From positions 1-64,000 of the forward strand of contig JAHHHD010000019.1 in the NCBI GenBank assembly GCA_019359505.1: 64,000 nucleotides of DNA. The letters are read 5' to 3'. The position numbers and the translations under genes are program-made. The stretch is from Drouetiella hepatica Uher 2000/2452. GTDB lineage: Bacteria > Cyanobacteriota > Cyanobacteriia > Elainellales > Elainellaceae. Positions 2,936 to 55,695 of the stretch are shown here, one piece after another. How positions within the stretch are numbered: position 1 is the stretch's first letter; each line of letters starts with the position of its first letter. The notes beneath the pieces are model-generated. The model had not been told where the DNA came from. It was given only the letters and a program-made list of their open reading frames with translations, and searched no databases.

Positions 2936-3736
2936 ATGCTAATAATCTCTGCTATGTCTCTGTCCGGTGGACAAGGAAAAAGCAGCACAATTTTATTTAC
3001 GGCTAAAATGCTTGCCGAAGCTGGTTACACAGTTTTAGCAGTAGATGCAGATCCACAAGGCAATTTATCTACGTTTTTACAGCATGACTTACAGCCGAAC
3101 GAGCCAACCTTGCTTGAAGTTGTGAAAGGCTCCGTAGCTTTGGAAGACGGCATTTATCCCGTAAAGGACTACGATCGCTTGTTCCTCATCCCTGCTGACG
3201 ATGCCTTAGAAGGGTTGCAAGACTACCTCAGCACTAGCGGAATAGGGGCTTTGATGATGAAGCAGCGGCTAGAGCCAGCCAAGGGCAATTTTGATATTTG
3301 CCTAATAGACCCTCCTCCTCAGAGATTCCAGCTAAGTCGCTCAGTTATAGGAGCATCAGAGCAAATCATCATTCCAGTAGAGCTAAATGTTAAGGGCTTT
3401 GGAAGCTTAATCAGAACTACTGCCGCAATTCAAGAATTCATTGAATTCAAAATTTGCCATCCTGAAATTCTAGGGGTGCTGCCCTTTAGAGATCGTTGGA
3501 CTGGACTAAACAGGACTATTGAATGTGAGACATGGTTAAACCATATGCAAGGAGAGATAGCGCCTGAATTGTTTCTACCCTCTTTGCGAGAATCGACAAA
3601 AGTAGTACGGGCGATCAGTTCAGGTTTGCCTCTATCGGCTCTGACTTCACCAGAAGACAAATACCCGTTAGATGAGCCATTCAAGGAATTGCTAAAAAGA
3701 GTGACAAGTAAGATGGAGAAACATTCTAATGTCTGA
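2936..3736 (+). CDS. parA: ParA/Soj-family partition ATPase
   Basis: Deviant Walker A SLSGGQGKSST, the DADPQGNLS motif, a 266-aa size, and repeat arrays on both sides of the operon. Confidence 0.9.
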   Translation: MLIISAMSLSGGQGKSSTILFTAKMLAEAGYTVLAVDADPQGNLSTFLQHDLQPNEPTLLEVVKGSVALEDGIYPVKDYDRLFLIPADDALEGLQDYLSTSGIGALMMKQRLEPAKGNFDICLIDPPPQRFQLSRSVIGASEQIIIPVELNVKGFGSLIRTTAAIQEFIEFKICHPEILGVLPFRDRWTGLNRTIECETWLNHMQGEIAPELFLPSLRESTKVVRAISSGLPLSALTSPEDKYPLDEPFKELLKRVTSKMEKHSNV

Positions 3737-4136: not shown

Positions 4137-4206
4137 TTTGTAAATTACATCATTTATGAATTACACAATTTGATAATGATGTAATTTACAAATTGTGTAA
4201 TTCATA
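4137..4206. repeat. Second centromere-like repeat block downstream of the par operon
   Basis: Blocks TTTGTAAATTACATCAT and TTATGAATTACACAATT are followed by their reverse complements in the same order (1,2,1',2'). These are the same two motif families as at 2753-2930. Confidence 0.55.
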
Positions 4207-4267
4207 AATAAATCAGTTTATTGTTTCTAGTTTATGGTTTATTGTTCTGTCGAGCCTTTTAATTTTT

Positions 4268-4308: not shown

Positions 4309-5220
4309 ATGAAAAAGCAAAGTCAAACTATTCCAATACTTATCGAAGTTTTTTCTGTTGACTCAGAGAGTCAGAATAGACTGGATCTGTTCATCTGCAA
4401 TACTATCAATTTCAGTCCTAAAGACGATCTGGGAAGTATGGAGTATCCTGTCTTCACATTATCAACTAAGCGAAAATACAATGTCAGACGATATGAGAGA
4501 AATGGAACTTTTATTGAGATAACTCCAAGTGTATTAGGTCATGCAACTATTTTTGATAATGATATTTTAATTTATTGCATAAGCCAGCTAGTTGCAGGTC
4601 TAAATGCAGGTCGACAAATTGGAAGAACTGTAAGGTTTCCGGCTTTTAATTTTTTTGCTAACACTCATCGAGATGCAGGCGGTAAGGAATATTCTCTATT
4701 AGCCCAATCACTTGTGCGATTGAGAGGTACAACCATAACTTCAAATTTAACCACTGAAGATCCCATCACAAAAGAAGTTACCAAACTTGTTGGAGCAGGG
4801 TTAATTGAAAATTTTACAATCTATAAAAAATCAGCAGAAACAGAGGAAATAGGTACAGTCGAAATTACTCTATCTAAATGGCTCTATAACGCCGTACAAG
4901 CCAAAGAGGTTTTAACCCTTGATCAGAAATATTTTGAGTTACGGAAAGCCTTAGAACGTCGGATATACCTTTTAGTGCGTAAGCATTGCGGAAATCAACC
5001 AAGCTGGAAAATTAGCCTTAAGCTGTTACTGGAAAAAAGTGGTTCTGAATCGGAAAGAAGAGAGTTTAGAAGAATGATAAAATTTATTTGCGATAGTGAC
5101 ACTCTTCCAGGCTACAAAATGAACTATGTTGAGACAGAAGACTTTGTTTTATTTCAAAATAGAATTAATAAAGAAACTGTAAAAGATGCAATCACACAAC
5201 TCGTTCTAAACCTAAAATAG
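4309..5220 (+). CDS. repA: Replication initiator protein A (RPA / PF10134-like RepA)
   Basis: N-terminal pattern MEYPVFTLSTKRK...IEITPSVLGHATIFDNDILIYCISQL...RTVRFPAFNFF...GGKEYSLLAQSLVRLRGTTITSN matches my recollection of the RPA family consensus. Iterons lie immediately downstream. Confidence 0.8.
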   Translation: MKKQSQTIPILIEVFSVDSESQNRLDLFICNTINFSPKDDLGSMEYPVFTLSTKRKYNVRRYERNGTFIEITPSVLGHATIFDNDILIYCISQLVAGLNAGRQIGRTVRFPAFNFFANTHRDAGGKEYSLLAQSLVRLRGTTITSNLTTEDPITKEVTKLVGAGLIENFTIYKKSAETEEIGTVEITLSKWLYNAVQAKEVLTLDQKYFELRKALERRIYLLVRKHCGNQPSWKISLKLLLEKSGSESERREFRRMIKFICDSDTLPGYKMNYVETEDFVLFQNRINKETVKDAITQLVLNLK

Positions 5221-6401: not shown

Positions 6402-7679
6402 ATGTTGACAATCTCTGCCGTTGGTGGTGGCAAATGGAAATACTTCCTCTCGATCGCTAAAGAAGAGCTTCTCAGCGAGGAAGAGATAGAAGGGTACTGG
6501 CTTGGGGCTGGGGCTGAGAAGATTGGGCTTAAAGGAAACGTCAAAAAGCAGCATTTTAAGAACGTTTTTGAGGGGTTTGCACCCAGAAACAAGCAAATAA
6601 AGCTTGTTAGGAATGCAGGTGGTGCTGACAGACAGGGCGGCTGGGACTTAGTTTTCTCTGCTCCAAAATCGGTAAGCGTTGCCTTTAGTCAGCTCTCAGA
6701 TAAAGTGCCAGAAAAAAAGACAATTCTTGAGATCCATCACAGAGCTTTAGAGAAGGGAATTGATTTTCTAACTGAGCAGACCTACACAAGACGTTTTGAA
6801 ACTGGGGTAGGGAAAAGCGAGGAAAGAGCGGGACTTGTCATTGCTGCCTTTACTCACCAAACCTCAAGACTCAATGACCCACTACTTCACACCCATGCCC
6901 TCTTTATCAATCTTTGCTCACGCGCGGATGGCTCTACAGGCTCAATTAACAGCCGTCAACTGTATGTACTCCAAAAAGAAGCCGGAACGTTATACAGGGC
7001 AGAATTAGCCCTCGGGCTAGAGCATCATTTAGGGCTTCGCCTGCACCGTAAAGAGAGCTGGTTTGAGATTGACGGTATCCCGGATGAAGCCATAGATTTC
7101 TTCTCAAAGCGTCGAAATGAGATAGAAGCACGGCTTAATAAGCTTGGCTTTCACTCAGCTCAGGCTAAAGAGTACGCAAACTTTGATACTCGGAAAGCCA
7201 AGGGATACAAGAGCAGGCATGAGCTTTTCTTGGACTGGCAGGAACAGGGAAAGGCTTTAGGACTCTCAGAAGGGCTTATTCTTGACCTGTTTGGGAAAGA
7301 GCAGATCAGACGCGATCGCACTGAACAAATTCAAATCGTTGTGGATGAGGTCTCTAAGCGTCTGGCTCAGAGCAATAAACCGTTCACTAACCGGGATGTT
7401 TATCGCCTGGTCGCAGAAGAGTCACAATGCAGAGGGGTAGGGCTTGAACTTGCCTGCTCGATCGCTAAAGGCTATCTGGCTTCTGATGATGTCCAGATGA
7501 TAAAAGAATTCCAGAAGAGCCAACTTTACGAGAGTAAGCGTCAAGAGCCTCTAATCCAAGCATCTCAAAATATTGATACGGATAGGGATAGAGATTACAT
7601 CTCACATCGACCCATCATAGAAATTCCAAGGGCTTCAAACATGGGTCAAATCGAGCATACTCTTATCATTCAACGGTAG
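6402..7679 (+). CDS. MOBF / TrwC-type conjugative relaxase domain protein (no helicase domain)
   Basis: N-terminal MLTISAV...GYWLGAGAEKIGLKG and the histidine triad HQTSRLNDPLLHTHALF. Confidence 0.85.
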   Translation: MLTISAVGGGKWKYFLSIAKEELLSEEEIEGYWLGAGAEKIGLKGNVKKQHFKNVFEGFAPRNKQIKLVRNAGGADRQGGWDLVFSAPKSVSVAFSQLSDKVPEKKTILEIHHRALEKGIDFLTEQTYTRRFETGVGKSEERAGLVIAAFTHQTSRLNDPLLHTHALFINLCSRADGSTGSINSRQLYVLQKEAGTLYRAELALGLEHHLGLRLHRKESWFEIDGIPDEAIDFFSKRRNEIEARLNKLGFHSAQAKEYANFDTRKAKGYKSRHELFLDWQEQGKALGLSEGLILDLFGKEQIRRDRTEQIQIVVDEVSKRLAQSNKPFTNRDVYRLVAEESQCRGVGLELACSIAKGYLASDDVQMIKEFQKSQLYESKRQEPLIQASQNIDTDRDRDYISHRPIIEIPRASNMGQIEHTLIIQR

Positions 7680-7684
7680 GAGAT

Positions 7685-39863: not shown

Positions 39864-40202
39864 GTGTCTAAAAACAACCAAAAGCGACCATGCGGGGGTA
39901 GGACTAAAAGGGCAAACTACAAAACGGTAGTGATCCGAGTGCCGGTTCCGTTAAAAGCTCAGGTAGAAGGGCTGATTTCTGCCTTCCATGAAGAGAACGA
40001 TCGCTATTTGGCTCTACCTATCGCCGGCTCCTGGTGGGAAGTGCTAGGGGTGTCTCCTGGTGCGTCTGTTGATGAAGTGAAGCAGTCTTATCGATCGCTT
40101 GCTCGTCTGTATCATCCAGATAGCAACAAGCGGAGAGACGCGGAAGCAAGATTTGCTGCTCTCAATGAGGCTTACAGAGCTTTCCAGGCAGGTAACAGCT
40201 AA
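39864..40202 (+). CDS. J-domain (DnaJ-like) protein
   Basis: WWEVLGVSPGASVDEVKQSYRSLARLYHPDSNKRRDAEARFAALNEAYRAF contains the HPD motif. The start is GTG. Confidence 0.8.
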   Translation: MSKNNQKRPCGGRTKRANYKTVVIRVPVPLKAQVEGLISAFHEENDRYLALPIAGSWWEVLGVSPGASVDEVKQSYRSLARLYHPDSNKRRDAEARFAALNEAYRAFQAGNS

Positions 40203-40483
40203 GAAAGGATGATTAGGTTAGGCAATACGCCTGTAGGAGCTGCTGCTCCTCTTAAGAGACCTTCAGAGCTTAAATCCTCGTCGATCGCTTCCCAGTGAAT
40301 GCCATAACCACCACCGCACACTTGCCACTGTTGCCTTTGCTCCTCAGTTGCATTCATAAGCCTTGGATACCAAACAAGGGGAACGGTTATGGTGCGTCCG
40401 TCCATTAGTGACACGCTTAAAGTGTCTTCAGAAAGTTTTACATCGGTGATTCTTTCATCTGATGCTGGAGCCAAAATACCCAT
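40199..40483 (-). CDS. DUF2442-family protein
   Basis: LMDGRTITVPLVWYPRLMNATEEQRQQWQVCGGGYGIHWEAIDEDLSSEGLL. Confidence 0.75.
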   Translation of the reverse strand: MGILAPASDERITDVKLSEDTLSVSLMDGRTITVPLVWYPRLMNATEEQRQQWQVCGGGYGIHWEAIDEDLSSEGLLRGAAAPTGVLPNLIILS

Positions 40484-40700
40484 ACCATCCTTCTAATAAA
40501 GTCTTTTTATGTTCGTTGACCAGTTTTGTGAGTGTCATCAGCTCTGTAGGGCTAAATCCATTACTACGTGCAAGTTGAATAGATTTCAACCAGAACTTTG
40601 CAGAGTTATTATCTCTATCAATATGTATATGAGGAGGTTCGCTACCTTCGTGACTATAAAAGTAGAATCTGTACGCTCCTATTCTAAGAATCGTCGGCAT
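40455..40700 (-). CDS. DUF4160-family protein
   Basis: MPTILRIGAYRFYFYSHEGSEPPHIHIDRDNNSAKFWL. It overlaps the downstream DUF2442 gene, the usual pairing. Confidence 0.75.
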   Translation of the reverse strand: MPTILRIGAYRFYFYSHEGSEPPHIHIDRDNNSAKFWLKSIQLARSNGFSPTELMTLTKLVNEHKKTLLEGWYGYFGSSIR

Positions 40701-40884
40701 GAATTCTTATCTACATGAATTTATGCCAGTTGTCACGGGCTTTTTTTAGGAAGGATTTGAAAACTCAAAGTATTTTTTTAGCCATGTTCCTTGACTAGCT
40801 TAAAGAGATCAGTAAATTGAGGACTTAAAAAACAGCTTTAGGGGGCGACACTGCTTTACCTGGAGTTTCTTTGAGTGGAATTTT

Positions 40885-41361
40885 ATGGCGATTGAAGAAG
40901 ACAGTAGAAATTTGAATCAAAATGCTGGGATTGGTGAGCAGCCTGACCTTTCACAAAGCTTTGCTCCTAGAGAGGAAAGTGCAGTCTTAAACCAGGGTCA
41001 ACTCAATCAAGGAGAAGTTATCTTCCAGATAAAACAAGACCTAACTTTGCTTTTAGAGTCGTTAGGGATAATGAGAGAAAAATTTAAGATTGTAAGCAAT
41101 ATTGTAAATCAGCAATCAATGGAGGAAACAGAATTTCCTGCTGGCACTTCTACAAAAGGAGAGAAAAGTCTTGCTGATTTATTAGATGATTGTGCAGCAG
41201 ACATGAGAGATGTGATGATTGAGTTGATTGGCGAATCTGTCGAAAAGACCGGAGCAAGAGATTTATATGAAGCGGTAACGGAAATGGAAACTGCTTTTCA
41301 AACAACTGTTCGTTTACAACAACTAGCAGAAACCCTTTATGACGAAAATATTAATCACTAA
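40885..41361 (+). CDS. Hypothetical protein; its N-terminus and promoter region are paralogous to those of the 41603 ORF
   Basis: NLNQNAGIGEQPDLSQSFAP here compares with NLDQGEKLSGAVPDLSQSSLP in the neighbour. Both are preceded by TTCCTTGACTA. Confidence 0.5.
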   Translation: MAIEEDSRNLNQNAGIGEQPDLSQSFAPREESAVLNQGQLNQGEVIFQIKQDLTLLLESLGIMREKFKIVSNIVNQQSMEETEFPAGTSTKGEKSLADLLDDCAADMRDVMIELIGESVEKTGARDLYEAVTEMETAFQTTVRLQQLAETLYDENINH

Positions 41362-41602
41362 AGATGAACACGCCAAGTAAAGTATTTGACCGTCTATAAA
41401 GGCAAGGATCTCTATCGCTGTTCTAGAGATGACTTCACTAAGAGGACGATCGCACTTTAAGAGTGGTGTGGTGGGCTGTTAGGCTATCCCAGTGCAGTGA
41501 AATTAGCTGAACCATTTCCTTGACTATGCAAGAGATTTAGGTAGGCTTAAAGGCTCAAATATTAGCTCCTGAAAGCAGATGTGCTTTGCGGGAGTTTTTT
41601 TA

Positions 41603-42327
41603 TGTGGGGATTTGTGACGATCGAGGGAGATAAGAGAGGGCAAGAAAATTTAGATCAAGGTGAAAAACTGTCTGGGGCAGTACCTGACCTCTCACAATCT
41701 TCTTTACCATTAAATGAGATCAGCATAGATCAAGGAGAAGCTCATACTGCTGTACTTGATCGACAGACTTCTCTAACCCTGCTAGGTTCACTAGCTGGAG
41801 CGGATCGAATACAAAGAGAAGCAGAAGCCAGTAGTCTTGTCTGTAAGATTCTAGGGGATACTGAGTACGGCATAGAGATAGCAGGGGGATATTTAGCTCA
41901 TCATCCTGAGATTGCGGTTTCAGAGCTGCTCTCTAAAATTCAAGAAAAAATGAGTCAGGTGGGAGGAGGGCGATCAGGATCTAGTCTTGAGGGTAATTTG
42001 GAGGAAAGTTCCTCTGTTTTAGAAAGTACTTATGCTCTACTCGAATGCAGTTGGGAGAAGCTCGATTCTCCTACCCAAGAGATTGCCATCTTCATAGGGC
42101 ATCTTCCTCCCCACACAGATATTGCTTGGACAGTTGTAGAATTAATGAAGCAGATCGAACTAGAAGAGAATTCCGAAACTGACAGCGTTAATTTAATTAA
42201 TCTTGATAGAAGCAAAGAAAAGCTTATTCACTTAAATCTACTAAAACCAGTTGAAGATGAGAAGTATAGTATGCACTTAAATATTCGTAAATTCTTCCTC
42301 GATAAAGCATCTAATTTAGAAGTTTAA
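41603..42327 (+). pseudogene. P-loop-less paralog or fragment of the NB-ARC gene (ARC/winged-helix part only)
   Basis: GIEIAGGYLAHHPEIAVSELL and the C-terminal ...TQEIAIFIGHLPPHTDIAWTVVELMKQIELEENS... align with residues ~295-450 of the 44020-45372 protein. No Walker A or B motif is present. The ATG at 41603 is preferred over the GTG at 41581. Confidence 0.5.
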
Positions 42328-42332
42328 TATCT

Positions 42333-44027
42333 TTATTCTATTGATAATTTGTCTCTATCAATTTCATCAAACACATGGCTCTGGAGATCAGTATCTAAAT
42401 CGTTTTCATCAAAATCATTGCTCTTGAGAGCTGCAAAGAATTCAGTTAAGTACTCTGCATAGTCGAATTTATATTCAATACTTTTCTTATTTAAGTCTTT
42501 CAAACGATTGTTAAGGGAATTCGTCCTGAAAGACTCATATAGTGTAGTTTCTCTAAAACGAGTAACGGCAGCGTATAAATGAGAATACTCACGTAGTGCT
42601 CTTTTCAGGTTATAAGCTATTGGTGTAGCGTTTTCTTTCAAAAACCTCAAAGTACTTAGCCTCATAACAGCAATGGTAAAGTCAGGATGTATATAATACA
42701 ATAAAGTTCTGATCGCTGTTTCAAAGTAAGATGCTGAGTAAAAATACAACATCTCTATTTCATATAAAATCTCATATATCTGAAGAGTATCGGCAGTTTG
42801 AAGTTTTTTAGTTTCTCGACTAGCCAGATCATAAAGCAACCTCCCAAATAGAGTATAAAAATATGGGAAACCTCCATACTCTGTATCTACACCTTCTGTA
42901 ATTCTTTTATAAGCTTCCTCATAATAAGCTTTAGCAATATCCAGGTCTCCTTTATATTGAGCTATGAGTCCTTCTGTAAAAGGATTTTCAAACCCATACA
43001 TTCTTCTCAAATCATCATAATAATCTAGCTCCTTACGTATAGATAATTCTTGTGCTTCTGCAAAAAAGAACATTCCATATCGATCCGCCATTAGGGCGGA
43101 TATCTTCAATTGGTCAAAATGCTCAAAAAGAATACTCGGAGGCTTAGGTGCATATATGTAAAATAATCTATATGATTTTGCTAAGTAATTAACAGCGGCA
43201 CTAAAACGCATTTTCCGTATGAGAAACTTTCCAAATTGGAAGCAAACCATTCTTTCCTGATCGTTCCCAAAAGGGAGATCTAAATGTTGGTATATCTCAT
43301 AAGTTTTATTAAAGACCTCCATTAGTTCTGGTTGAGTAACCTCCGGTTCGACTTTTTTTAGCTCATTAAGGGCATCTGAAAAATTATTTAGAACTTGTCG
43401 ATAACTCAAATCTTCGTCTGTATCCAACTGAGCTAAAAAAAGATATGCGTTTGCTCTGATAAGTCCAAGAGTAGGGATATCTTCTGATGGGCTTATGTGC
43501 TTCAAATGTAGTATAGCTAAAGACAGAATTTTCCTAGCTGTATAATATTTTTTCCTGATTTTATAGTACAGTCCAAGGTAGCTCAGGCAAACGAGATATT
43601 GGATGGAATTTTTAAGTCCACCTTTGACATAAATACGTATGCCTTGAGTGCATAACTGTTTTGCTTCCTCATTATGCTCTCTTGCAAAGTAAAGCCCAAT
43701 TAATTTTGTCGATAGATGGTTGAAACTTTGTAAATAGAAAGGCTCATTTTTTTGAAGCAGTGATAACCCCTTCTTCAAATAATGAACTGCGTCATCGTCT
43801 CTGTCATAGTCTTCATAATGGCAGCCTAAGAGATGCCCCAAGAATGAAACTTCTAAATTAGTTAAAAGGTGACTAAAATCTGAGAAATAATAATTTATGT
43901 CTTCTATAAAAGGAGAAATATGTAAGAAAGCAAACCGAGCCTGGCTCGTCCATAATCTCTTAGGCACCTGCGAACATTTACGTACAAATGCCTTTATCGC
44001 AAGTTTGTACACTTTATCATTACTCAT
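42333..44027 (-). CDS. TPR-like helical-repeat protein, the probable sensor half of a split STAND NTPase
   Basis: 8-nt overlap with the upstream NB-ARC gene. Repeated amphipathic helix pairs occur throughout (e.g. AKAYYEEAYKRITEG), in 564 aa. Confidence 0.65.
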   Translation of the reverse strand: MSNDKVYKLAIKAFVRKCSQVPKRLWTSQARFAFLHISPFIEDINYYFSDFSHLLTNLEVSFLGHLLGCHYEDYDRDDDAVHYLKKGLSLLQKNEPFYLQSFNHLSTKLIGLYFAREHNEEAKQLCTQGIRIYVKGGLKNSIQYLVCLSYLGLYYKIRKKYYTARKILSLAILHLKHISPSEDIPTLGLIRANAYLFLAQLDTDEDLSYRQVLNNFSDALNELKKVEPEVTQPELMEVFNKTYEIYQHLDLPFGNDQERMVCFQFGKFLIRKMRFSAAVNYLAKSYRLFYIYAPKPPSILFEHFDQLKISALMADRYGMFFFAEAQELSIRKELDYYDDLRRMYGFENPFTEGLIAQYKGDLDIAKAYYEEAYKRITEGVDTEYGGFPYFYTLFGRLLYDLASRETKKLQTADTLQIYEILYEIEMLYFYSASYFETAIRTLLYYIHPDFTIAVMRLSTLRFLKENATPIAYNLKRALREYSHLYAAVTRFRETTLYESFRTNSLNNRLKDLNKKSIEYKFDYAEYLTEFFAALKSNDFDENDLDTDLQSHVFDEIDRDKLSIE

Positions 44028-45372
44028 AATCTTGATTAGACACTTTATTTCGGAAAAACTCGCGAAGTAATGGATGAAGCCGATAAGTTAAATCTTTAAC
44101 TGGTTTTAGTAAATTCAAGCTAATAAATTTACTCCTACTTTTATCAAGATTAACAAGTTCATCAGTGTTTATTGCAGAATTTTCTTCTAGTTCGATCTGC
44201 TTCATTAATTCTACAACTGTCCAAGCAATATCTGTTCGGGGTGGAAGATGCCCTATAAAGATGGCAATCTCTTGGGTCTCTGAATCAAGAATCTTCCAAG
44301 TTAATTCAAAAGCAGCATCGAGACCTCTACGTGCAGTAAGAGACCAATTAGGATTTTGCTGGAAATCTCCCTGAAAAGCTTCATGATGAAGGGCTTCTTT
44401 CCTGGAGGCAAATTCTTTTAATTGGGATAGAAGAAGTGAGGTTGGAATGCCAGACTCAATCGCTAAATATCTCCCTGCCAACTCAATCCCTAATGGCAGG
44501 TCTCCAAGAAATTCACACAGTTCTTGTGAGAGTGGATCGTCATAGAAAATGGTTTCATTTTCTGACAACCATTTAAGAAGTTCTATTGAATCAATTCGGT
44601 CAAGCACATCTAAATCAAAAAATATAAATGGATCTCTAAGTTTCAAACGAGTTGTAACTACAACCTTAAAACGATTATCACTAAATAATTCAAGAAAAGA
44701 CTTAATTTCTTCGTATTTTTCAATATCATCAAAAATGATAAGAACATTACCCTTAGTCCAATTATCTATACAAAACTGAACCTGATCAGAAGTGCTCAGA
44801 GGAATATTTAGCTTAAGCTTATTTTTAGAGAAAGATATAATCTGGGAAGCGATGCTTAGTTGATTTGAATCATCTGTTCTTACAGAAATCCAGCAAATAC
44901 CCCCAGGATAGTGCTGAAAGTATTTTTTGGCATATTGGATAGAAAACTCAGTTTTGCCAACTCCGCCCATACCGGATACTGCAACCCTCATCCTCCCTGG
45001 CTTTTGAAGTTCGGCGTGTAATTTCTTAAGTCTGTCGTCTCGTCCAAAGAAACCACCATCTCGAACCCCGCTTTCCAAAACGTTATGTGGTGGTTCAGAA
45101 AAGGAATGCTCAGGCTCTACTTCCTGTTCATCGCCCCAGTCCACTATAGACTCCCAATCTGTAATACCTAATTTTTCGCAGATAGCCAGAAATTTCTTAG
45201 CATCAACAGGCTCTCCCTTGAAAAACTGCCTTACTGCGTCCTTACGGGCATTTGGAGAGTCAGTTATGAAAGCTTCTAGGGTAGGGTACAACCTCTCTCG
45301 AAGACGAATGACAAAATCTAGCTTGCCCTTGCGAACAGAATACTTAGTCCTGTGGCGAGTCTGCTTGGTCAT
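44020..45372 (-). CDS. NB-ARC (STAND) NTPase with an N-terminal HTH-like domain
   Basis: Walker A VSGMGGVGKTEF, Walker B VLIIFDDIE, VVVTTR, and the GLPLAL-equivalent GDLPLGIELAGRYL. An XRE-like segment lies at the N-terminus. Confidence 0.85.
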   Translation of the reverse strand: MTKQTRHRTKYSVRKGKLDFVIRLRERLYPTLEAFITDSPNARKDAVRQFFKGEPVDAKKFLAICEKLGITDWESIVDWGDEQEVEPEHSFSEPPHNVLESGVRDGGFFGRDDRLKKLHAELQKPGRMRVAVSGMGGVGKTEFSIQYAKKYFQHYPGGICWISVRTDDSNQLSIASQIISFSKNKLKLNIPLSTSDQVQFCIDNWTKGNVLIIFDDIEKYEEIKSFLELFSDNRFKVVVTTRLKLRDPFIFFDLDVLDRIDSIELLKWLSENETIFYDDPLSQELCEFLGDLPLGIELAGRYLAIESGIPTSLLLSQLKEFASRKEALHHEAFQGDFQQNPNWSLTARRGLDAAFELTWKILDSETQEIAIFIGHLPPRTDIAWTVVELMKQIELEENSAINTDELVNLDKSRSKFISLNLLKPVKDLTYRLHPLLREFFRNKVSNQDYE

Positions 45373-45848
45373 GTTATGAGTGCCAACTCTTTTTAAGAGT
45401 ATACATTAGGTTTTTTGCTTAAATCCGACATAAATCCGACTTAGCTGGAATCTCCGCCTTAAAACAGTTTTCAGTCAGGTATTTTGCAAATTTACCAATG
45501 TTACTCTTCCTTTTAGTGAAGGAGCCTTTGGTAATACCAAAGACCTATCCACCAACCTAAGTCACTCCCAACCGCCCAAACCAACCCGTTAGCCTGGAGA
45601 GCGATCGCACATCCTGGCACAGGGTTCTTGTAACCAAAAATCAAGGAGGTGAGCAGCCCACTATGCATAACGGTCACTTTGACCAACCAGGGGAAAGGAA
45701 ACCATAGAGAGAGAAGAGATTAGGGAAAGAGAGATTCAAAACGCAAGGCTAGATATGTTTTGGCGACCAGATCTAGCGTTAAAACGTTGAAAAACCTCCT
45801 CTCTTTCCCTAAAAAAGCTTAAACCACATTTATTAGGAGAATTGTAAG

Positions 45849-46472: not shown

Positions 46473-46588
46473 TTGCCACTAGGATAAAACGCTTAAAAAA
46501 GGAGCCAAGACTTCCATAAGCCCCTTGGCTCCCTCAACTTAACTGTTAAACCATACATAGCTCTTCCAAGCAAAGGACAGTCACTCAA

Positions 46589-46837
46589 ATGAACAATATC
46601 GACCTAAGAAAACGCATGGTTCTGTTTGTTTTAGGCATGGGCTTAATCGGTGGAGCATTAGGCTATGCCGTAGGCTGTAAAGATGGTGCTTCTTGCAAAC
46701 TTAATCCAACATTACGCTTAGTAGCCATAGCTCAAGGAGCTGGTGCTGGCTGCGGTGCCGCAATTGGTGCAAGCCTGCCTGCCTTACTCTCCTCAAATGC
46801 TTCTGAATCAAATAGGAGAAAAAAAGGCACTAAATGA
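46589..46837 (+). CDS. Small Gly/Ala-rich membrane protein (82 aa)
   Basis: MVLFVLGMGLIGGALGYAVG and AQGAGAGCGAAIGASLPALL hydrophobic segments. Confidence 0.5.
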   Translation: MNNIDLRKRMVLFVLGMGLIGGALGYAVGCKDGASCKLNPTLRLVAIAQGAGAGCGAAIGASLPALLSSNASESNRRKKGTK

Positions 46838-46942
46838 TACCTCTTAAGCGATAAAGGCAATCGCCAGGTCATCACACATGATCTTTTTACTCAATCTAGT
46901 TCTGTAGATACAGCACTCCAAAAAAACTAGAAAGATAACAAA

Positions 46943-47254
46943 GCAAAGGACTGTCACTCAAATGATCGATATCGACCAAAGAAAATGAATAATTCTATTC
47001 ATTTTAGTTACAGGGCTAGTAGGTGCGTCGTTATTCTTAGCCATACGCTGCAAAAATAGTGCCTCTTGCAAACATAATCCAACATCTTGTGCAAGCCTTA
47101 ATGCCTTAAAACCTGCAAAGGCTTCTGAACTAAATAGGAGAAGGAAAAAGGCAGTAGATGATATCTCTTAAGCGATAGCGGAAGCTTATCGCCAGGTCAT
47201 CACATACGGTCTTTTCTGCTCAATTTAGTGCTGTATATACAGCACTCCAAAAAA
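46943..47254 (+). pseudogene. Decayed tandem duplicate of the 46570-46942 unit
   Basis: Copy 2 starts with GCAAAGGACTGTCACTCAAATGATCGATATCGACC, against GCAAAGGACAGTCACTCAAATGAACAATATCGACC in copy 1. It reaches a TGA after 8 codons, has internal deletions, and its 3' flank is conserved through ACAGCACTCCAAAAAAA. Confidence 0.6.
47227..47246. promoter_or_regulatory. Perfect 20-bp palindrome AGTGCTGTATATACAGCACT upstream of MOB module 2; oriT or operator candidate
   Basis: Exact 10+10 inverted repeat, 8 nt before the RHH gene ATG. An imperfect copy lies at 46898-46917. Confidence 0.3.
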
Positions 47255-47614
47255 ATGAGAAGCAAGCAGATAGAAACTATTAGTTTCAAACTAGATGAGC
47301 AAACAACCGACAAGCTTAAAGCAATAGCTCTTCAAAGCAACATATCTCATCACGGAGCAGCAAGGGCAATTATTATAACTGCCCTTTGCTCCTCGCCGGC
47401 TGAAGCTAGCACAACTTCTCTTCCAGGTGCATCAGGTGAACTAAAAGCTGACCTGTCTTACCTCAACTCGCACTTAGAGCAGATAACCTCTGCTCTAGCC
47501 GCTCAGAGTAAATTCTCAAGCCTTCTAGCAATCTTGCTACTTGTGAATATGGGGGTAGCTTCCGAGGAAGCAGAAAATGCCGTTTCAGAGCTTCTGGAGG
47601 CAAGCAGATGGTAG
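47255..47614 (+). CDS. Relaxosome accessory RHH protein (module 2)
   Basis: MRSKQIETISFKLDEQTTDKLKAIALQSNISHHGAARAIIITAL parallels the module-1 RHH protein. The ATG at 47255 is preferred over the GTG at 47228. The gene overlaps the relaxase start. Confidence 0.55.
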   Translation: MRSKQIETISFKLDEQTTDKLKAIALQSNISHHGAARAIIITALCSSPAEASTTSLPGASGELKADLSYLNSHLEQITSALAAQSKFSSLLAILLLVNMGVASEEAENAVSELLEASRW

Positions 47615-49493
47615 CGTCCGTGAGTATTATAAGTGGCTCTAGCGGTGATTACTTCACAAGAGCAATTGTCTATTACAAAAGTGAGGATCGAGAACCTGAA
47701 AAGGGTGAGCTTCAAGGTGAGTTTTATGGCTCCTTTGCAAAGAGTCTTGAGCTAGATAGGCAGGCGATCGCACACAAGGATAGACGCTTAAGTTCGCTAA
47801 TGCAGGGGATAGATCCGACAACGGGGAAGGTGCTGAGAAAAGGTGGCAAAACGGTTGATGAAAGTGGAGTTGAGAAGAAAAAGAATTCGTCGGTTGGAGC
47901 AATTGATATTACCTTTTCAGCTCCAAAAGATGTGTCAATTGCAGCCTTTTTAGCCCCGGAGAAGGAACGGCTTCAAATTGAGAAAGCTCATAACGAATCC
48001 GTTAAAGCTGCCCTTACTCATCTTGAAGAAAACTATGCCTTTCTGAGAACAGCTTCAGGCAATGAGAAGGCTCAAATTGTAGCAGGCATCTTTGCACATA
48101 CAACTTCTCGTGATGGAGATCCACAATTACACTCTCATGGCGTAGTGCTTAATTCCTGCCAGGGCAAGGAGTCAGGGAAAACTGGGGCACTTGATGGCAT
48201 GGCTATTTTACAAGCTCAGCACAGGCTTGGAGAAATCTATCGGAACGAATTACAGCACAAGCTAGAAAATTTAGGCTACATAACGCGACAAGTCTCTCTC
48301 CAGAGAGGCTACAGCTTCGAGATTACTAATATCGGGCTTACCCAGGAAGTAAGAGACCATTTTTCAAAACGAAGCGAAGCGATCGATAAAGAAGTAAGTG
48401 AGCATCCTGAAAAGTCACGCTCAAAAGCTGCTGTAGATACACGAAAAAAAAAGAGGAGAAAGTTGATAGAGCTGCTTGCTTTAAGCGGTGGAAAGCTGAA
48501 GGACTAGCTTTAGGGCTTGATCTAGAAAAGCTTAAATTAAAAGAGAAATCTTTAACTCAAGGACAAAAAGAAACTACTAAAGGAGAACTTGAAAAGAATG
48601 TTCTAAGAACACTTGTAAAAAAAGAAGCTCTTAAAGCTTTTACCGAGAAAGAGGTTTCATCAGCAGTCTTGAGACAAAGTAAGGGGCAATTTTCAAGTAA
48701 AGAATGTGAACAAATATCTAAAGAAATAATCAACAAGAATCTTCGAGAGATTGGGAGTGATTTAGAAAGATGGAAAAGACAAGACAAGGAAAAGCCACTT
48801 CACCTACGTATTAAAACAAATAAATCTTACACGTTAAGGAGAATGAGCAATGAGATTCAAAAAAGGCTTGGAACAGTTGAGCAGCAAAGACTTTCAGATA
48901 TCTATTCAAAGAGAGAAGAGCTTAAAGCTAAAAGCCTTGAGAAGCAAACCCTTGAAGGCAATAAGGCACGTCTATACACATTAAATAAAGAAGGAAGAGA
49001 AAAAGTAAAAGACTCTGCATATGCAATAGTGCGATCGAACTTTGCGCCCTGGCTTCAAAAGCTTTTACCAGAAGGGCAAGCTTTAAGTTATGAGTATCGA
49101 CAAAAACAGTTTGAGAAATCAAAACAAAAATTTGCTAAAAAGCAAAAACGATTTGAGAAAAGACAAAAACAGTTCAAAAGAAAAATGTTCTTTGCCTACA
49201 TGAAAGGGCATATCTCAAGGTCAAAGTATATACAAATTCGAGACGGCAAGAAACAAGAAAAATCAAAGATTTTGATACAAGTAAAATACGCAACGCACAA
49301 CATGAACAAAAAACAACGTGATTACTTACTCCGAAAACTTGATAAAGCCCAAACAAAAGTTGAAGAGAAAAAGCTGTCAAGCAGATTTTCAACTACTCCG
49401 CAAAAAGAACCAGTTAAGGAGAGAGAAAAAGAGAAGCCCAAAGAGCAGCCGAAAGAAAAGCAAAAAGAAAAGTCAAAAGAACGTGATAGGTAA
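47608..49493 (+). CDS. MOBF/TrwC-type relaxase (module 2) interrupted at an A9 run; the zero frame stops at 48507 and the -1 frame continues to 49493
   Basis: HTTSRDGDPQLHSHGVVLN histidine triad. After the A9 run (48444-48452), the -1 frame reads KKEEKVDRAACFKRWKAEGLALGLDLEKL. This parallels relaxase 1 RKAKGYKSRHELFLDWQEQGKALGLSEGL. The -1 frame is open from 48447 through the track ORF 48669-49493. Confidence 0.75.
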
Positions 49494-49499
49494 CTAACA

Positions 49500-50192
49500 A
49501 TGCAAACACGTAGTGAAACAAAAAGACGACTTAAGAAAACACTGGGAAGCCTTCTATGTCTGGCATTTGGAGTATATACAGGAAGAGTAATAGGGTTATT
49601 TATCGGAAGATTAGTTTTTTACACCTTACAGGCACATTCAACGTATGGGTTCTTTACCTGGATTGTGTCAGTGGCAATAGGAGTTAGAACTGAAGAGTTA
49701 ACAGCAGAAAGCTTAGCTCAAGCAATGAGTAGCTTTGAAAACTTTTTTCGCCTACTTGGAATGGTTTTCTTTGGAGAAGCGGGGGTAAGAGTTCATTACT
49801 GGTACTACTATTTAAGAGGCATTAAAACTTACCATGCATTTACGTTTGATAGCTTTAGAAAGCACTTTTTCCATATTGATAACGCCTATGTTGATATGCT
49901 CTGGGCTTTAATCTATGTGGTAAGCCTTGATACGGTGCGGGGTGTTTTGTGCTTTGTAGCAGGAAACGCTGTGTATGGTTACTTTTCTGGCATCTTGGGG
50001 TTTTACGCTATATTTCCAACACTTTTTGCAATCATACTAATTTTTCAGTGGGCAACTGAAACTGTAAAAAACGTTCTTCATCCACATCGAATTGAGTGGG
50101 AAATTCAAGATAGTTCGCTCATTAAAGCAGTGCTTTCAAAACGAGAGGAAGAGAACCTTTTAGGCAGAGGTCGAGAAGAGGAGGATGAATAA
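49500..50192 (+). CDS. Polytopic membrane protein, the likely detached TM domain of the downstream T4CP
   Basis: 4-5 hydrophobic helices and an 8-nt overlap with the T4CP gene. T4CP 1 carries an equivalent TM region fused to it. Confidence 0.55.
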   Translation: MQTRSETKRRLKKTLGSLLCLAFGVYTGRVIGLFIGRLVFYTLQAHSTYGFFTWIVSVAIGVRTEELTAESLAQAMSSFENFFRLLGMVFFGEAGVRVHYWYYYLRGIKTYHAFTFDSFRKHFFHIDNAYVDMLWALIYVVSLDTVRGVLCFVAGNAVYGYFSGILGFYAIFPTLFAIILIFQWATETVKNVLHPHRIEWEIQDSSLIKAVLSKREEENLLGRGREEEDE

Positions 50193-51924
50193 AAAGCTCT
50201 GCTGGAAGCTTCTTAAAGTCGCTAAAACGTTACTTAAAGCACTCTCAAAGATTATTTACAGCATTTTAGCTGACATGAGGCGAGATTCTTCGCTCGAATA
50301 TCGGCATGGTCATTCAATCATTGATACTGCCTGGGATATTCATCGTGAGAATCAAACGGAACTTGTTGCTAGTAAGGATCGCCAGATTAAGCAAAGTGAG
50401 GCAGCTCAAAAAGGCATACTGGCGGATCATCAATCGCCGGCTCTTCCAGCAGATTACGATCGAGAAAAGTACGTTCCCTTTGGACTAGGTTTTCAAAAGA
50501 TTGATGAGACTGAGGGGCATTTCCTTATAAGCGGCGTTACAGGCTCTGGTAAGGGCTTACTGACCCAAATTACAATGGCTCACGTCTTATCTCTTCAGAA
50601 AAGGCGAGTAGTCATTATCGACCCTAAGAACGATACACTAGGAATTCTTCATGGGATGAATATCCCTTATAAGTATTTTAATATTGCATCTACTCGTGGG
50701 ATTGCCTGGGATATTGCAAAAGATGCTGGAAGCTACACCAAACTTCCCCAAATAGCAGCAATTCTTCTTCCTGCTGATGAAAAAGCTACTGATAATTTTT
50801 GGCTCTTTGCATCTCGTGCCTTGCTTGTTGCAATCATGCGAGTCTTTATCTATCTCTTTCAAGATGAATGGGCATTCCATGACGTTGTTAAGGCTGCAAC
50901 ATTTCTTTCAAGAGAAGAGCTAATTACGTTCCTTAAGCAATGCCCTGGAAATGAGGCAATTATTCTTTCACTCTTTAGTGAAGAAGTTGAAAAGGCTTCA
51001 GCAAACGTGATGCTTGAAGTATTTACAAAGCTTGAAAGGCTAAACACTGCTGCGGTTCATAGTCAGCAGGCGACAGAAAAAATTAGCTTAAAAGAATTCA
51101 TGCAGCAAGATGATGGAGTGCTTGTTATTGGAATGGATCTAACTGAGAAAGAAGCTCATATGCCAATGATTCATGCAATCTTTAGGCGGCTGTGTGATTT
51201 TATCTTAGCCCTACCTGAGTACCCGGATGTTAAAACTTGGTTTTTTATAGATGAGGTAATTTTTCTAGGCTACTTGCCTGGGCTATTAGATTTGATGGTT
51301 TTTGCACGTTCTAAAAATGCCCTTGTCACTTTAGCTATTCAAGGGATGGAAGGGATGGAAGAGATTTACAAAAAAAACTTCTCAGAAATTATTGTTGAGA
51401 TGTGTAGATACAAAGCAATTTTACGCTCAACTGCGAGGACTGCTAGATGGGTCTCATCACTTTTTGGAAAAGTTGAAGTATACGATTCAACATCAAGCGA
51501 TAATTTTGGCTCTCAAGGCGTATCAGGTGGAAGCCAGGTGCGAAAAGAAGGCAGAGAAAAGTTCTACGATTCAACTTTTTTGGAGCTTCCTTTTCCGAGC
51601 AAGGCAAAAAAATTAGGATTAACGGGATTTTTTATCACGCCTGATAAGGCAGAAACAAGGAAAATTTCAAGCGAAAGGCTTGAAGCCTTAATGCCTAAAA
51701 AAGTAGAAGTTGCAAAGGAGGAATCTATAGACAATGAACAGCAATTACTTGTGCCGTGGAGTGAAAAAGAGAAGGCGAGATTTATCTATGGAGATAGAGA
51801 AAAGGAGGAGGTAACAATTGATGATTTACTAGATGAGCAGGTAGTTGAATATTTCTTAAATTTCACTGAAGAATTCGCAAGGAAGCTAAAACAAAAAGAT
51901 GAGCATGAAAAAACAGAAGATTGA
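50185..51924 (+). CDS. Type IV coupling protein ATPase domain (TraG/VirD4 family), lacking an N-terminal TM region
   Basis: Walker A ISGVTGSGKG, Walker B WFFIDEV, and a GAGGAGG RBS. Confidence 0.85.
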   Translation: MNKKLCWKLLKVAKTLLKALSKIIYSILADMRRDSSLEYRHGHSIIDTAWDIHRENQTELVASKDRQIKQSEAAQKGILADHQSPALPADYDREKYVPFGLGFQKIDETEGHFLISGVTGSGKGLLTQITMAHVLSLQKRRVVIIDPKNDTLGILHGMNIPYKYFNIASTRGIAWDIAKDAGSYTKLPQIAAILLPADEKATDNFWLFASRALLVAIMRVFIYLFQDEWAFHDVVKAATFLSREELITFLKQCPGNEAIILSLFSEEVEKASANVMLEVFTKLERLNTAAVHSQQATEKISLKEFMQQDDGVLVIGMDLTEKEAHMPMIHAIFRRLCDFILALPEYPDVKTWFFIDEVIFLGYLPGLLDLMVFARSKNALVTLAIQGMEGMEEIYKKNFSEIIVEMCRYKAILRSTARTARWVSSLFGKVEVYDSTSSDNFGSQGVSGGSQVRKEGREKFYDSTFLELPFPSKAKKLGLTGFFITPDKAETRKISSERLEALMPKKVEVAKEESIDNEQQLLVPWSEKEKARFIYGDREKEEVTIDDLLDEQVVEYFLNFTEEFARKLKQKDEHEKTED

Positions 51925-52051
51925 AATAGCTCTTAAAGCTATGTTGCCTGATGTGTTACTTACGAAAAAACAGATTGAGGAAATCACAGGCTTATCTGAC
52001 AACACTGTAGTTACAACCATTAATCCACTGAAGAATTTGCAAGGAAGCTAG
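51899..52051 (+). pseudogene. Truncated duplicate (50 codons) of the 5' end of the 52061 gene, created by a 162-bp tandem duplication
   Basis: MSMKKQKIEIALKAMLPDVLLTKKQIEEITGLSDNTVVTT here, against MSMKKQKTAIEIEAAFTALPLETLLTKKQIEEITGLSDNTVVTT in the full gene. It overlaps the T4CP 3' end in another frame. Confidence 0.45.
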
Positions 52052-52060
52052 AGCAAAAAG

Positions 52061-52639
52061 ATGAGCATGAAAAAACAGAAGACGGCAATTGAAATTGAAG
52101 CGGCTTTTACAGCCCTGCCTCTTGAAACTTTACTCACCAAAAAACAGATTGAGGAAATCACAGGCTTATCTGACAACACTGTAGTCACAACACTTGCTAA
52201 ATGCGGAATCCCGACTAGCAGCAGAACCTACTCAGTGGCTCTTTTACTAGAAAGGTTTGTGCCTGCAAGAAAAATCTTAGATGACGGAGGAACATATGAA
52301 AAAGTAGAGCAGTTTGTAAAAACCCTATCGCCTCTTGAAAGTGCAGAAGATGAAGAAGATGGAGGGGCGTTAATTGACGCATTAGATCAGCTTGAAGAAG
52401 ATGCTGCACAGGTTCTCTACGGTGCAATAGAAGAGAGAGCTGAGAGGCTAGTAGGGTATATGCCCAAAATGCTTATGAAGGCTGTCTCAGGGGCAATTCT
52501 TAAGGGTGCAGGCAGACAAAAGTTTAAGACTGAACTAATGCAAATACTAAAAGTTGAAAACTCAACTGGACAGCAAAAACGATTAGCTAATCCAGAAGAA
52601 GCACAGAAGCTTTTACCGTCTGAGACCCAAGACTCATAA
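52061..52639 (+). CDS. Hypothetical protein with a probable N-terminal HTH (192 aa)
   Basis: TKKQIEEITGLSDNTVVTTLAKCGIP resembles an HTH. The C-terminal half is acidic. Confidence 0.5.
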   Translation: MSMKKQKTAIEIEAAFTALPLETLLTKKQIEEITGLSDNTVVTTLAKCGIPTSSRTYSVALLLERFVPARKILDDGGTYEKVEQFVKTLSPLESAEDEEDGGALIDALDQLEEDAAQVLYGAIEERAERLVGYMPKMLMKAVSGAILKGAGRQKFKTELMQILKVENSTGQQKRLANPEEAQKLLPSETQDS

Positions 52640-55441: not shown

Positions 55442-55609
55442 ATGGAACAGAATCAAAATAAACATCGCTTGATCGAAGCTGGAGTTAAAAAGGCAGTAGC
55501 TCTTGCTCTTGAGAGGCACAGACGACTCGGTGAATCAATCGCTGTCTGGAAAGATGGTCAGGTTGTTATTGTACCTCCTGAGGAAATCCCATCAAATCCA
55601 GGTAGTTAG
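55442..55609 (+). CDS. Small ORF (55 aa) 3 nt downstream of the zeta-like gene; possible partner or antitoxin
   Basis: ATG 55442 to TAG 55607-55609, below the ORF-track cutoff. A decayed copy of it, together with the zeta 3' end, recurs at 61184-61378. Confidence 0.4.
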   Translation: MEQNQNKHRLIEAGVKKAVALALERHRRLGESIAVWKDGQVVIVPPEEIPSNPGS

Positions 55610-55695
55610 TTTGATTCGATTCGTACTTGAAAATTTAGTCAACAGCTTGTTGCTCAAATTCTATGGAGACATAACAAATGAAAAACAGCATGGCT

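Follow-up and report, generated by a model that had tools for sequence, protein, structure and literature searches.

The window analysed here, a stretch of 64,000 nucleotides (positions 1 to 64,000 of contig JAHHHD010000019.1 in assembly GCA_019359505.1), belongs to a conjugative plasmid from the metagenome-assembled genome of the cyanobacterium Drouetiella hepatica Uher 2000/2452. It carries a three-gene locus built around a STAND NTPase of the NB-ARC class whose sensor half appears to be encoded by a separate partner gene. On the far side of the partner, in inverted orientation, lies a paralogue that lacks the nucleotide-binding domain (NBD), which we call the ARC-only gene. The NB-ARC and ARC-only genes share a short, nearly identical patch, and comparison with a second plasmid contig, L087, strongly supports recurrent gene conversion at this site. 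The open reading frames (ORFs) and features of the locus are listed below, with HTH, HD1, WHD and TPR standing for helix-turn-helix, helical domain 1, winged-helix domain and tetratricopeptide repeat, respectively.

44020-45372, minus strand: split STAND NTPase (NB-ARC) gene, 450 aa, with an HTH candidate (aa 1-82), NBD (aa ~105-255), HD1 (aa 256-330) and WHD (aa 345-450); from ORF, Pfam, AlphaFold2, Foldseek and family alignment
45127-45372, minus strand: HTH candidate of the Xre/Cro type in the first ~82 residues of the NB-ARC protein; weak signals
44950-44973, minus strand: Walker A/P-loop GMGGVGKT, aa 134-141, invariant in 13 of 13 relatives
44177-44277, minus strand: right patch arm, in the NB-ARC gene; perfect 53-mer at 44183-44235, wider arm 44092-44318
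42333-44027, minus strand: partner gene KME15_16415, 564 aa, putative all-alpha, diverged TPR-like sensor half; from ORF, weak TPR signal and relatives
41581-42327, plus strand: ARC-only paralogue, 248 aa from GTG; from ORF, alignment, frame test and the L087 orthologue
42073-42173, plus strand: left patch arm, in the ARC-only gene; perfect 53-mer at 42115-42167, wider arm 42032-42258
41520-41601, plus strand: promoter/leader block of the ARC-only gene; −35-like TTGACT at 41520-41525, −10-like TAGGCT at 41542-41547
40885-41361, plus strand: 158-aa ORF with the same type of promoter/leader (X-type, see below) and a non-ARC body; 39% identity over 67 aa (E 6e-10) to the 216-aa product of gene X on a metagenomic contig, L085

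The split NB-ARC gene, its partner and the ARC-only paralogue

Residues 112-244 of the NB-ARC protein match the NB-ARC family of Pfam (PF00931) with an E-value of 1.6e-10 and 41.1 bits against a cut-off of 23.5, and the motifs GMGGVGKT, LIIFDD (Walker B), VVTTR (sensor-1), GDLPLG (GLPL) and YRLHPL (an MHD-like LHP) are invariant in 13 relatives. An AlphaFold2 model built on 13 relatives displays the NBD-HD1-WHD fold with a predicted local distance difference test score (pLDDT) of 78. In a Foldseek search this model retrieves Apaf-1 (1z6t) as the best match (E 3.8e-12, TM-score 0.55), followed by the NB-ARC domain of NRC1 (8bv0) and by CED-4. NCBIfam matches to AfsR (E 6e-7) and FxSxx_TPR are partial and fall far below the family cut-offs. 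An exact-sequence look-up of the 450-aa and 423-aa NB-ARC products gave no record, probably because of start-codon differences.

A preliminary description of this DNA, made from its letters alone, had assigned an HTH, a P-loop and an ARC module to this protein and a TPR-like fold to its neighbour. The P-loop and ARC labels are borne out by the Pfam match and the motifs, whereas the N-terminal HTH is suggestive only. HTH_3 reaches at best an E-value of 4e-4, in two of 11 family N-termini, with additional matches to HTH_19 and HTH_26, and the window protein itself gives nothing significant. The alignment of the N-terminus to a transcriptional regulator in the Protein Data Bank (3tyr) is plausible, the match being weak (E 0.23), and the AlphaFold2 model shows three helices in this region at a pLDDT of 58-74. 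No match to an effector domain (nuclease, protease, SIR2 or similar) was found in the 82 N-terminal residues, in agreement with the preliminary description.

The NB-ARC ORF stops four residues past the WHD homology. The sensor repeats are not fused to it; a separate ORF follows instead, the ATG of which overlaps the end of the NB-ARC gene, stop codon included, by 8 nt (44020-44027), as had been described. The TPR signal of this partner is faint (TPR_12, E 3.6e-4, under the Pfam cut-off); its positional equivalents in split relatives carry canonical TPR_12/TPR_10 arrays with E-values of 1e-94 to 1e-157. A full HMMER scan with the partner recovered one real relative, P0123 (E 6e-20), and otherwise TPR halves of STAND proteins (E about 5e-4), and a word-indexed homologue search matched only the partner itself. 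A single-sequence AlphaFold2 model contains about 29 helices at a pLDDT of 44, too poor for a fold search. In both lineages that carry an ARC-only gene (the window and L087) the partner is a degenerate, hyper-divergent TPR protein, and its sequence and position suggest a separately encoded, fast-diverging sensor half.

The closest NB-ARC relatives (40-46% identity) are likewise short, NB-ARC-only proteins; more distant relatives (about 35-38% identity) are ordinary fused NB-ARC-TPR proteins, which are abundant. Ten of 69 classifiable genome loci hold a split pair, in which a short NB-ARC gene is followed by a 400-560-aa gene, and the remainder are fused. The two genes overlap by 17-47 nt in nine of these ten loci, and on a RefSeq Nostoc plasmid the split pair is already annotated as two genes. 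The split of NB-ARC and TPR is a trait of the clade and not peculiar to the window, so that this part of the arrangement is less novel than the preliminary description had supposed. In seven distinct plasmid-like loci (L001, L003, L005, L088, L089, L090 and L093) the pair occupies a fixed position, divergent from an operon of type IV secretion system (T4SS) and type IV coupling protein (T4CP) genes and usually followed by a convergent TrwC relaxase gene, DnaJ and DUF6876. One of them, L089, also carries a CBASS-like pair (a CD-NTase C-terminal domain and a Cap15-type effector, positions 1-1259) a few kb from the NB-ARC/TPR pair.

The single real relative of the partner, P0123, is encoded on metagenomic contig L085, with gene order as in the window. 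P0004, which is among the closest NB-ARC relatives, lies on L087, a contig of the same sample. The order of genes on L087 is NB-ARC, partner (again with an 8-nt overlap), a convergent 230-aa gene, DUF2442, DnaJ, ArdA, DUF6876 and RadC. The NB-ARC proteins of the window and L087 are only 42% identical. L085 and L087 are 97% identical over a 3.8-kb backbone and have wholly different cargo at this site.

The ARC-only gene (annotated as KME15_16410, 241 aa, with its start at the ATG at 41602) converges on the partner gene, the two stop codons being separated by 5 nt. It aligns to residues 256-446 of the NB-ARC protein only (48% identity, E 2e-51; family hidden Markov model (HMM) positions 267-456), and neither tblastn nor the family HMM detects a remnant of the NBD or HTH upstream of the ARC-only part in any frame of 40600-42340. 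The product consists of an X-type leader (aa 1 to ~46) and a P-loop-less HD1 and WHD (aa 57-245), much as the preliminary description had it. Walker A, Walker B and TTR are absent, and the GLPL and MHD-like motifs are degenerate, with GDLPLG changed to GDTEYG, TARRG to SVLES and YRLHPL to YSMHLN. Of 33 positions that are invariant among 13 full-length relatives, 15 are retained. The ORF has no Pfam match, its only homologue among 5.8 billion proteins, the L087 orthologue aside, is the neighbouring NB-ARC gene, and scans of metagenome and viral contigs with the ARC-only alignment gave no confirmed relatives. Two candidate P-loop-less homologues (P0011 and P0024) were rejected as contig-end fragments of full-length genes.

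When neutral decay to the observed divergence is simulated, a 153-codon ARC-only frame stays open in at most 0.04% of cases (P ≤ 0.0004), and the codon periodicity of the gene (GC1 > GC2 > GC3) is that of the NB-ARC gene. The 230-aa gene of L087 is a full-length ARC-only orthologue (42% identity over 240 aa, E 5e-50) with the same leader and the same degenerate motifs (GDMKYG for GDTEYG of the window; YSLPLL). In HD1, upstream of the patch, the two ARC-only orthologues are 53% identical to each other and only 29-35% identical to their own NB-ARC neighbours. Considering (i) the maintained frame and (ii) the syntenic, full-length orthologue on L087, the ARC-only ORF is not a relic but a conserved gene that has been maintained since before the lineages of the window and L087 separated.

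The ARC-only leader block is 67-72% identical to the block upstream of gene X in L085, and a small hairpin followed by a T-run lies between the −10-like site and the ARC-only ATG. Placed immediately before the start codon, the hairpin and T-run look like an attenuator. The leader module, consisting of the first ~46 residues and ~100 nt upstream, is common to the ARC-only gene, gene X and the 158-aa ORF, which is preceded by a promoter-like site at 40791-40818. Judged by its composition, the ARC-only gene is a chimera of a leading-region promoter/leader and the HD1/winged-helix half of an NB-ARC gene. Copies of this cassette stand before unrelated bodies at 40780-40884 and 41500-41601 of the window, 1810-1930 of L085 (minus strand) and 4702-4830 of L087 (minus strand). 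The shared pattern is TTGACT, a spacer of 16-17 nt, TAnnnT, the hairpin and T-run, and a peptide of the form WG(F/Y)V(A/T)IEGD(R/K)R...P(E/D)LS; between L085 and L087 the block is 90% identical and there is no likeness downstream of it. The 158-aa ORF was considered as a third ARC fragment and rejected, its match to the NB-ARC family HMM having an E-value of 2.3 and the leader alone being in common. A tblastn search of gene X against plasmids gave no match, and the idea of a leading-region promoter active in single-stranded DNA was dropped after folding of the single-stranded leader blocks gave z-scores of −0.3 to +0.9.

The inverted patch, gene conversion and the question of inversion

Aligned to the reverse complement of 44177-44277, the stretch 42073-42173 shows mismatches at five of its 101 positions and a 53-bp perfect run, exactly as first described, and this patch lies within a 227-nt inverted repeat of 79% identity. 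The mismatches are at 42093, 42108, 42113, 42114 and 42168 in the left arm, corresponding to 44257, 44242, 44237, 44236 and 44182 in the right arm. A perfect run of 53 nt is expected by chance with a probability of about 1e-8 to 1e-13, the 53-mer arose in none of 100 shuffles of the window, and the patch is the sole long inverted repeat between genes within the 64 kb. Its right arm codes for residues 366-399 of the NB-ARC protein, i.e. the end of a WHD helix (364-374), a loop and a second helix (384-398). Outside the patch the two genes are only loosely similar, as had been noted, with 52% nucleotide and 39% amino-acid identity and a synonymous divergence (dS) saturated at 1.4. Inside it, nucleotide identity is 94-95%, dS is 0.24 and the nonsynonymous divergence (dN) is 0.019.

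The comparison with related plasmids that the preliminary description had called for shows that L087 has a patch of its own and is in the same orientation state as the window. A 56-nt perfect run (2003-2058 versus 4215-4160) connects the NB-ARC and ARC-only genes of L087 within a patch that is 82% identical over 137 nt, compared to 46% in the flanks, and a 149-nt inverted repeat likewise brackets the partner gene. In the residue numbering of the window, the L087 patch covers residues 383-401 and the perfect run of the window 380-397. The sequences of the two patches differ, being SWKLVDGMKQAQARMNPEF in L087 and TDIAWTVVELMKQIELEE in the window. When the patch is masked, neighbour-joining of the ARC halves unites the two ARC-only genes in 100% of 300 bootstraps and groups them with their own neighbours in 0%. 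The patch itself gives identities of 83% and 72% to the neighbour in the same locus and of 30-35% across plasmids. Towards the 3′ end, similarity within each locus still exceeds that between orthologues, which suggests older, longer conversion tracts.

The preliminary description had named conservation of a shared motif under purifying selection as an explanation that would undo its interpretation of the patch. Such selection is excluded by the divergence of the patch from the family. In both NB-ARC proteins no other stretch of the whole sequence departs as far from the family (ratio to the family baseline 0.44-0.53), and the same stretch is normal (0.92-1.06) in ten relatives without an ARC-only paralogue. 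The discordance between patch and remainder in two plasmid lineages strongly supports recurrent, site-restricted gene conversion. Gene conversion is processive and its tracts are halted by diverged sequence (PMC5485169), with which the short tract seen here is in keeping. The conversion proposed in the preliminary description therefore stands, its being recent does not: since the ARC-only lineage is older than the divergence of two plasmids with NB-ARC proteins of only 42% identity, conversion has been recurrent and long-lived. The winged-helix element changes fast between plasmids and is kept identical within each.

The preliminary description had also regarded the patch as an inversion substrate, and its geometry agrees with this. 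A simulated crossover in the 53-mer leaves both frames open and yields a 449-aa NB-ARC protein with the other tail and a 249-aa ARC-only protein; the 8-nt overlap with the partner passes to the ARC-only gene, and a 5-nt convergent junction is regained on the other side. Inverted repeats flank the partner gene in both the window and L087. Programmed inversion, by contrast, is not borne out. No site-specific recombinase was found among the ORFs tested in 31.8-62 kb of the window, where only an insertion sequence transposase is present (31833-33497), or among the called genes of L087, an invertase encoded elsewhere being conceivable, and the two loci are in the same orientation state. Furthermore, derived losses (Y-S in place of Y-R, loss of the arginine of FFR) are common to both ARC-only tails, and the invariant YRLHPL is missing from them, which means that these tails have been tied to the ARC-only gene during evolution and have been no substitute for the tail of the NTPase. 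In the k=31 Logan assembly of SRR12347860, contig L004 stops after exactly 30 nt of either 53-mer copy, as is inevitable in a graph of this k, and a flip of the segment creates no new 31-mers; because this assembly breaks at the repeats, existing assemblies are uninformative on orientation. The flip does create 42 new 75-mers and 192 new 150-mers, and the mismatches around the 53-mer can be phased by reads of 60-75 nt or longer. A search for the other orientation in a metagenome contig collection by means of the 53-mer did not find the 53-mer. We do not think that inversion of 42174-44176 is a selected function; it is a possible by-product of the same recombination, and orientation isomers may exist at low frequency.

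The plasmid surroundings

The window contains ParA and RepA-type initiator genes for partition and replication and two different pairs of a TrwC relaxase and a T4CP, the relaxases being 30% identical to each other. Further genes encode a Tc-type ABC toxin, ArdA, DUF6876, DnaJ, a DUF4160/DUF2442 pair, RadC and a zeta toxin. The larger features are as follows.

6402-9664: first relaxase/coupling set, TrwC of 425 aa and T4CP of 659 aa
10011-17978, plus strand: TcB/SpvB-like protein (SpvB, TcdB_mid), 2,655 aa
19060-20247 and 20397-21434: peptidoglycan-binding GH5 cellulase-like gene and encapsulin/linocin-like gene, between the toxin genes
21496-31434, plus strand: TcA-like protein (TcA_TcB_BD, ABC_toxin_N, neuraminidase-like), 3,312 aa, with an N-terminal peptidoglycan-binding domain
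40199-40700, minus strand: overlapping DUF2442 (94 aa) and DUF4160 (81 aa) pair, toxin-antitoxin-like, adjoining the locus
47608-51924: second relaxase/coupling set, TrwC domain of 299 aa and T4CP of 579 aa

Next to the ~840-aa TrwC of related plasmids this second TrwC ORF is short, and unassigned ORFs at 48669-50192 lie downstream of it. An origin of the ARC-only ORF as the remnant of a cointegrated module tied to this second set was rejected on the 30% identity of the relaxases, and is also contradicted by the L087 orthologue, which sits in a single transfer context. Diverged direct repeats of 82-86% identity (51864-52191; 55482-55616 with 61251-61385; 46568-46626 with 46941-46999) occur in the neighbourhood of the second T4CP gene, farther downstream of it, and among the small ORFs that precede the relaxase gene, which suggests local duplications in the transfer region.

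The position of the DUF2442/DUF4160 pair is kept in L085 and L087. Between the NB-ARC gene and the divergent operon of small ORFs and relaxase there is a non-coding block of ~115 nt (~45558-45670) with a counterpart at ~600-712 of L087. The two blocks are about 85% identical, against a protein identity of just about 42% for the genes on either side, and the block is a candidate operator, promoter or origin-of-transfer (oriT)-type element. Megablast of 40700-45600 against the plasmids of PLSDB and an Rfam search of 38-48 kb of the window gave no match, and a promoter/terminator scan found no enrichment over shuffles.

The Tc toxin region has a GC content of 52-55%, compared to about 42% in the rest of the window, and arrays of short direct repeats of the GGATTTACAGGATTTAAGGATT and AAAATCCTGAAAATCCT types lie between both toxin genes (18057-18407 and 18447-18962). 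Iteron-like repeats with a 16-nt spacing (TGTGTAATT / ATGTAATT) at 2753-2917 and 4141-4225 bracket the parA-like gene (2936-3736) and also lie upstream of the RepA (RPA) gene (4309-5220); this region is probably a partition or replication origin. A perfect palindrome of 147 nt occupies positions 1-147, with arms 1-73 and 75-147 that are 100% complementary, and could be either a fold-back assembly artefact at the contig end or a genuine hairpin.

Proposed function of the locus and its alternatives

With about even confidence, we propose that the locus is a three-gene system in which gene conversion keeps the ARC-only protein, as a modulator without an NBD, matched to the interface of the NB-ARC switch. 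The NB-ARC and partner genes, coupled in translation by their 8-nt overlap, would encode the two halves of an NLR-like switch that is put together in trans. Having neither an NTPase nor an N-terminal output domain, the ARC-only protein would present the same winged-helix surface and would compete for, or cap, the contact that this surface makes with the sensor or with a second NB-ARC subunit. Each change of this fast-evolving surface would then favour convertants in which the match is restored.

The working analogy for such a modulator is TrlR of octopine-type Ti plasmids, a plasmid-borne truncated paralogue of a regulator that arose by duplication, lacks the DNA-binding (output) domain and blocks TraR through inactive hetero-complexes, namely dimers (PMC3907764). 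The ARC-only protein is truncated in the comparable sense that it retains HD1 and the WHD and has lost the HTH and NBD, and by this likeness it may act as TrlR does. TrlR differs in belonging to the LuxR family and not to NB-ARC, and it is not known to be conversion-matched to its target.

Several points weigh against this proposal. We infer the competitor or modulator role and the shared interface, and the AlphaFold2 model of the partner is unreliable. The ARC-only gene is present in just two loci of common ancestry, and a single origin thus underlies the association of paralogue, diverged patch and degenerate partner. The sequence of L087 (sample ERZ26165376) was assembled from long metagenomic reads at 3x coverage and shows a frameshift in the partner gene. 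A homology island could, strictly speaking, sustain itself without selection. Finally, the N-terminal HTH is a candidate only, and any output of the system is putative. The HTH-like (albeit weak) N-terminus, the lack of an effector domain and the fixed backbone position favour a regulator of transfer genes; the hyper-divergent sensor and the different cargo on 97%-identical backbones favour a role in conflict.

The architecture is closest to several known systems without coinciding with any of them. The NLR-like NB-ARC/TPR STAND proteins of filamentous cyanobacteria and actinobacteria have the same NB-ARC module with its Walker A, Walker B, GLPL and MHD-like motifs, an Apaf-1/NRC-like fold, a TPR sensor and the same taxonomic setting, but in the present locus the sensor is encoded by a gene of its own that is translationally coupled, no death or effector domain can be recognised, the genes lie in a conjugative transfer region, and an extra NBD-less paralogue is present. 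STAND regulators such as AfsR/SARP, GutR and MalT share a nucleotide-binding oligomerization domain (NOD) and a TPR-like sensor, preceded by a DNA-binding domain in those regulators and by an HTH candidate here, as well as the divergent placement by an operon that could be controlled; in the present locus the sensor would act in trans, and the scores are far below the family cut-offs. The patch resembles the concerted evolution of tufA and tufB (PMC5485169, PMC6053082) in its non-reciprocal exchange, in that copies within a genome are closer than orthologues and in its divergence-limited tracts. It differs in that just ~100 nt are homogenised, in two saturated, functionally different genes, and in that these are the fastest-evolving and not a conserved part. 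Finally, the ‘epigenetic invertons’ of hsdS and intragenic invertons (PMC7672463; 10.1101/2023.03.11.532203) likewise consist of an inverted partial copy with an internal repeat that permits a C-terminal swap; unlike them, the present locus has no adjacent invertase, a long homology patch instead of a short recombinase site, and a single silent partner.

A possible, though in our judgement doubtful, alternative is that the locus is an Avs-like anti-phage or anti-plasmid defence system, in which the NB-ARC/TPR pair would serve as a sensor for abortive infection, with the ARC-only protein as its accessory or decoy, and the fast evolution of the sensor would reflect an arms race, all of which is compatible with gene conversion. 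Cyanobacterial NLR-like NB-ARC/TPR proteins are abundant in filamentous species and have been linked to conflict and cell-death functions (10.1101/2020.01.06.895854). The hyper-divergent partner, the different cargo on nearly identical backbones, as at a defence hotspot, the neighbouring ArdA and toxin-antitoxin-like genes and a weak PADLOC match of the P-loop region to the candidate PDC-S01 (E 3.2e-5) fit such a role. The locus shares with Avs the logic of a STAND NTPase with a C-terminal TPR-type sensor. However, it is split into two genes on a plasmid backbone, its short, HTH-like N-terminus has no effector domain, and PADLOC returned no Avs or other named defence HMM for the NB-ARC protein and no match at all for the partner and ARC-only ORFs. 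In addition, the fixed position of the pair between the T4SS/T4CP operon and the relaxase, found in at least eight loci, is more like that of a backbone regulator, and AfsR, GutR and other STAND transcription regulators are built in the order HTH, NOD and TPR. The Avs-like label of the preliminary description is thus not upheld.

Two further explanations take the patch itself as their starting point. According to one, which we regard as unlikely, the island is maintained as a recombinational switch because crossovers invert 42174-44176 and thereby reversibly move the coupled sensor and the C-terminal tails between the P-loop and P-loop-less proteins, so that an NLR-like system would undergo phase variation (ON/OFF or A/B) with no invertase of its own. 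The simulated geometry is exact, with open frames of 449 and 249 aa and transfer of the 8-nt overlap to the ARC-only gene, a perfect inverted repeat of 53-56 nt flanks the sensor gene in two independent lineages, and 53-56 nt of identity is a sufficient length for RecA-type recombination. Conversion and crossover proceed from the same intermediates, the k=31 break at the repeats leaves orientation undecided by assemblies, and there are invertons that have no invertase gene nearby or whose inversion is ‘spontaneous’ (PMC7672463). Against this stand the surroundings of the locus, which in neither the window nor L087 include a gene for a tyrosine or serine recombinase, the single state of both loci, the ARC-only tails, which by their shared losses and missing YRLHPL evolved within the ARC-only protein, and the presence of a single silent partner per locus in place of a cassette array. 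The stricter form of this idea, in which the island is a selected device whose RecA-type crossovers in the 53-56-nt stretch flip the sensor between an NTPase-competent and an NTPase-less scaffold and the patches are footprints of these events, seems to us quite improbable; if true, a bacterial NLR-like system carried by a conjugative plasmid would undergo phase variation without an invertase. The other explanation, that the facing ORF is a decaying NB-ARC duplicate and the patch a chance or self-perpetuating tract without function, we hold to be very unlikely. It could account for the loss of 18 of 33 family-invariant positions, GLPL, TARRG and YRLHPL among them, for the missing Pfam match and for the near absence of homologues, and an island of identity that is the sole site at which recombination can start might perpetuate itself (cf. 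PMC5485169). Yet a decaying copy would hardly keep a 248-codon open frame at 52% nucleotide identity (P ≤ 0.0004), gene-like codon periodicity and its promoter/leader block. The full-length orthologue in the same position of L087, with shared derived motifs and 53% identity in HD1, largely refutes it, and the patch recurs at the same site in this second lineage, where the NB-ARC copy is strongly diverged too.

Cyanobacterial NLR-like NB-ARC/TPR proteins (10.1101/2020.01.06.895854), gene conversion between paralogues, invertons made of partial copies and truncated dominant-negative paralogues were all known. What we have not found described, and what upholds the remaining part of the claim to novelty, is their combination: a split NLR-like pair with a conserved, inverted, NBD-less paralogue across the sensor gene and an independently renewed homology island in the fastest-evolving helix. 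The locus is a clear case of concerted evolution limited to a small part of two functionally diverged genes, and it illustrates that short, identical inverted patches can render plasmid segments invertible in a manner that is undetectable to k-mer assemblies.

How the NBD module communicates with the sensor, and how truncated members tune this communication, is a central question for NLR and STAND proteins of bacteria, plants and animals. The locus offers module and sensor already as two proteins, together with a natural NBD-less copy, and it nominates a winged-helix element of ~30 residues, fast between plasmids and identical within a plasmid, as a specificity or contact surface. Should the ARC-only protein turn out to act as an antagonist under the control of a leading-region promoter, NLR-like switches would be tied to the control of plasmid establishment or transfer.

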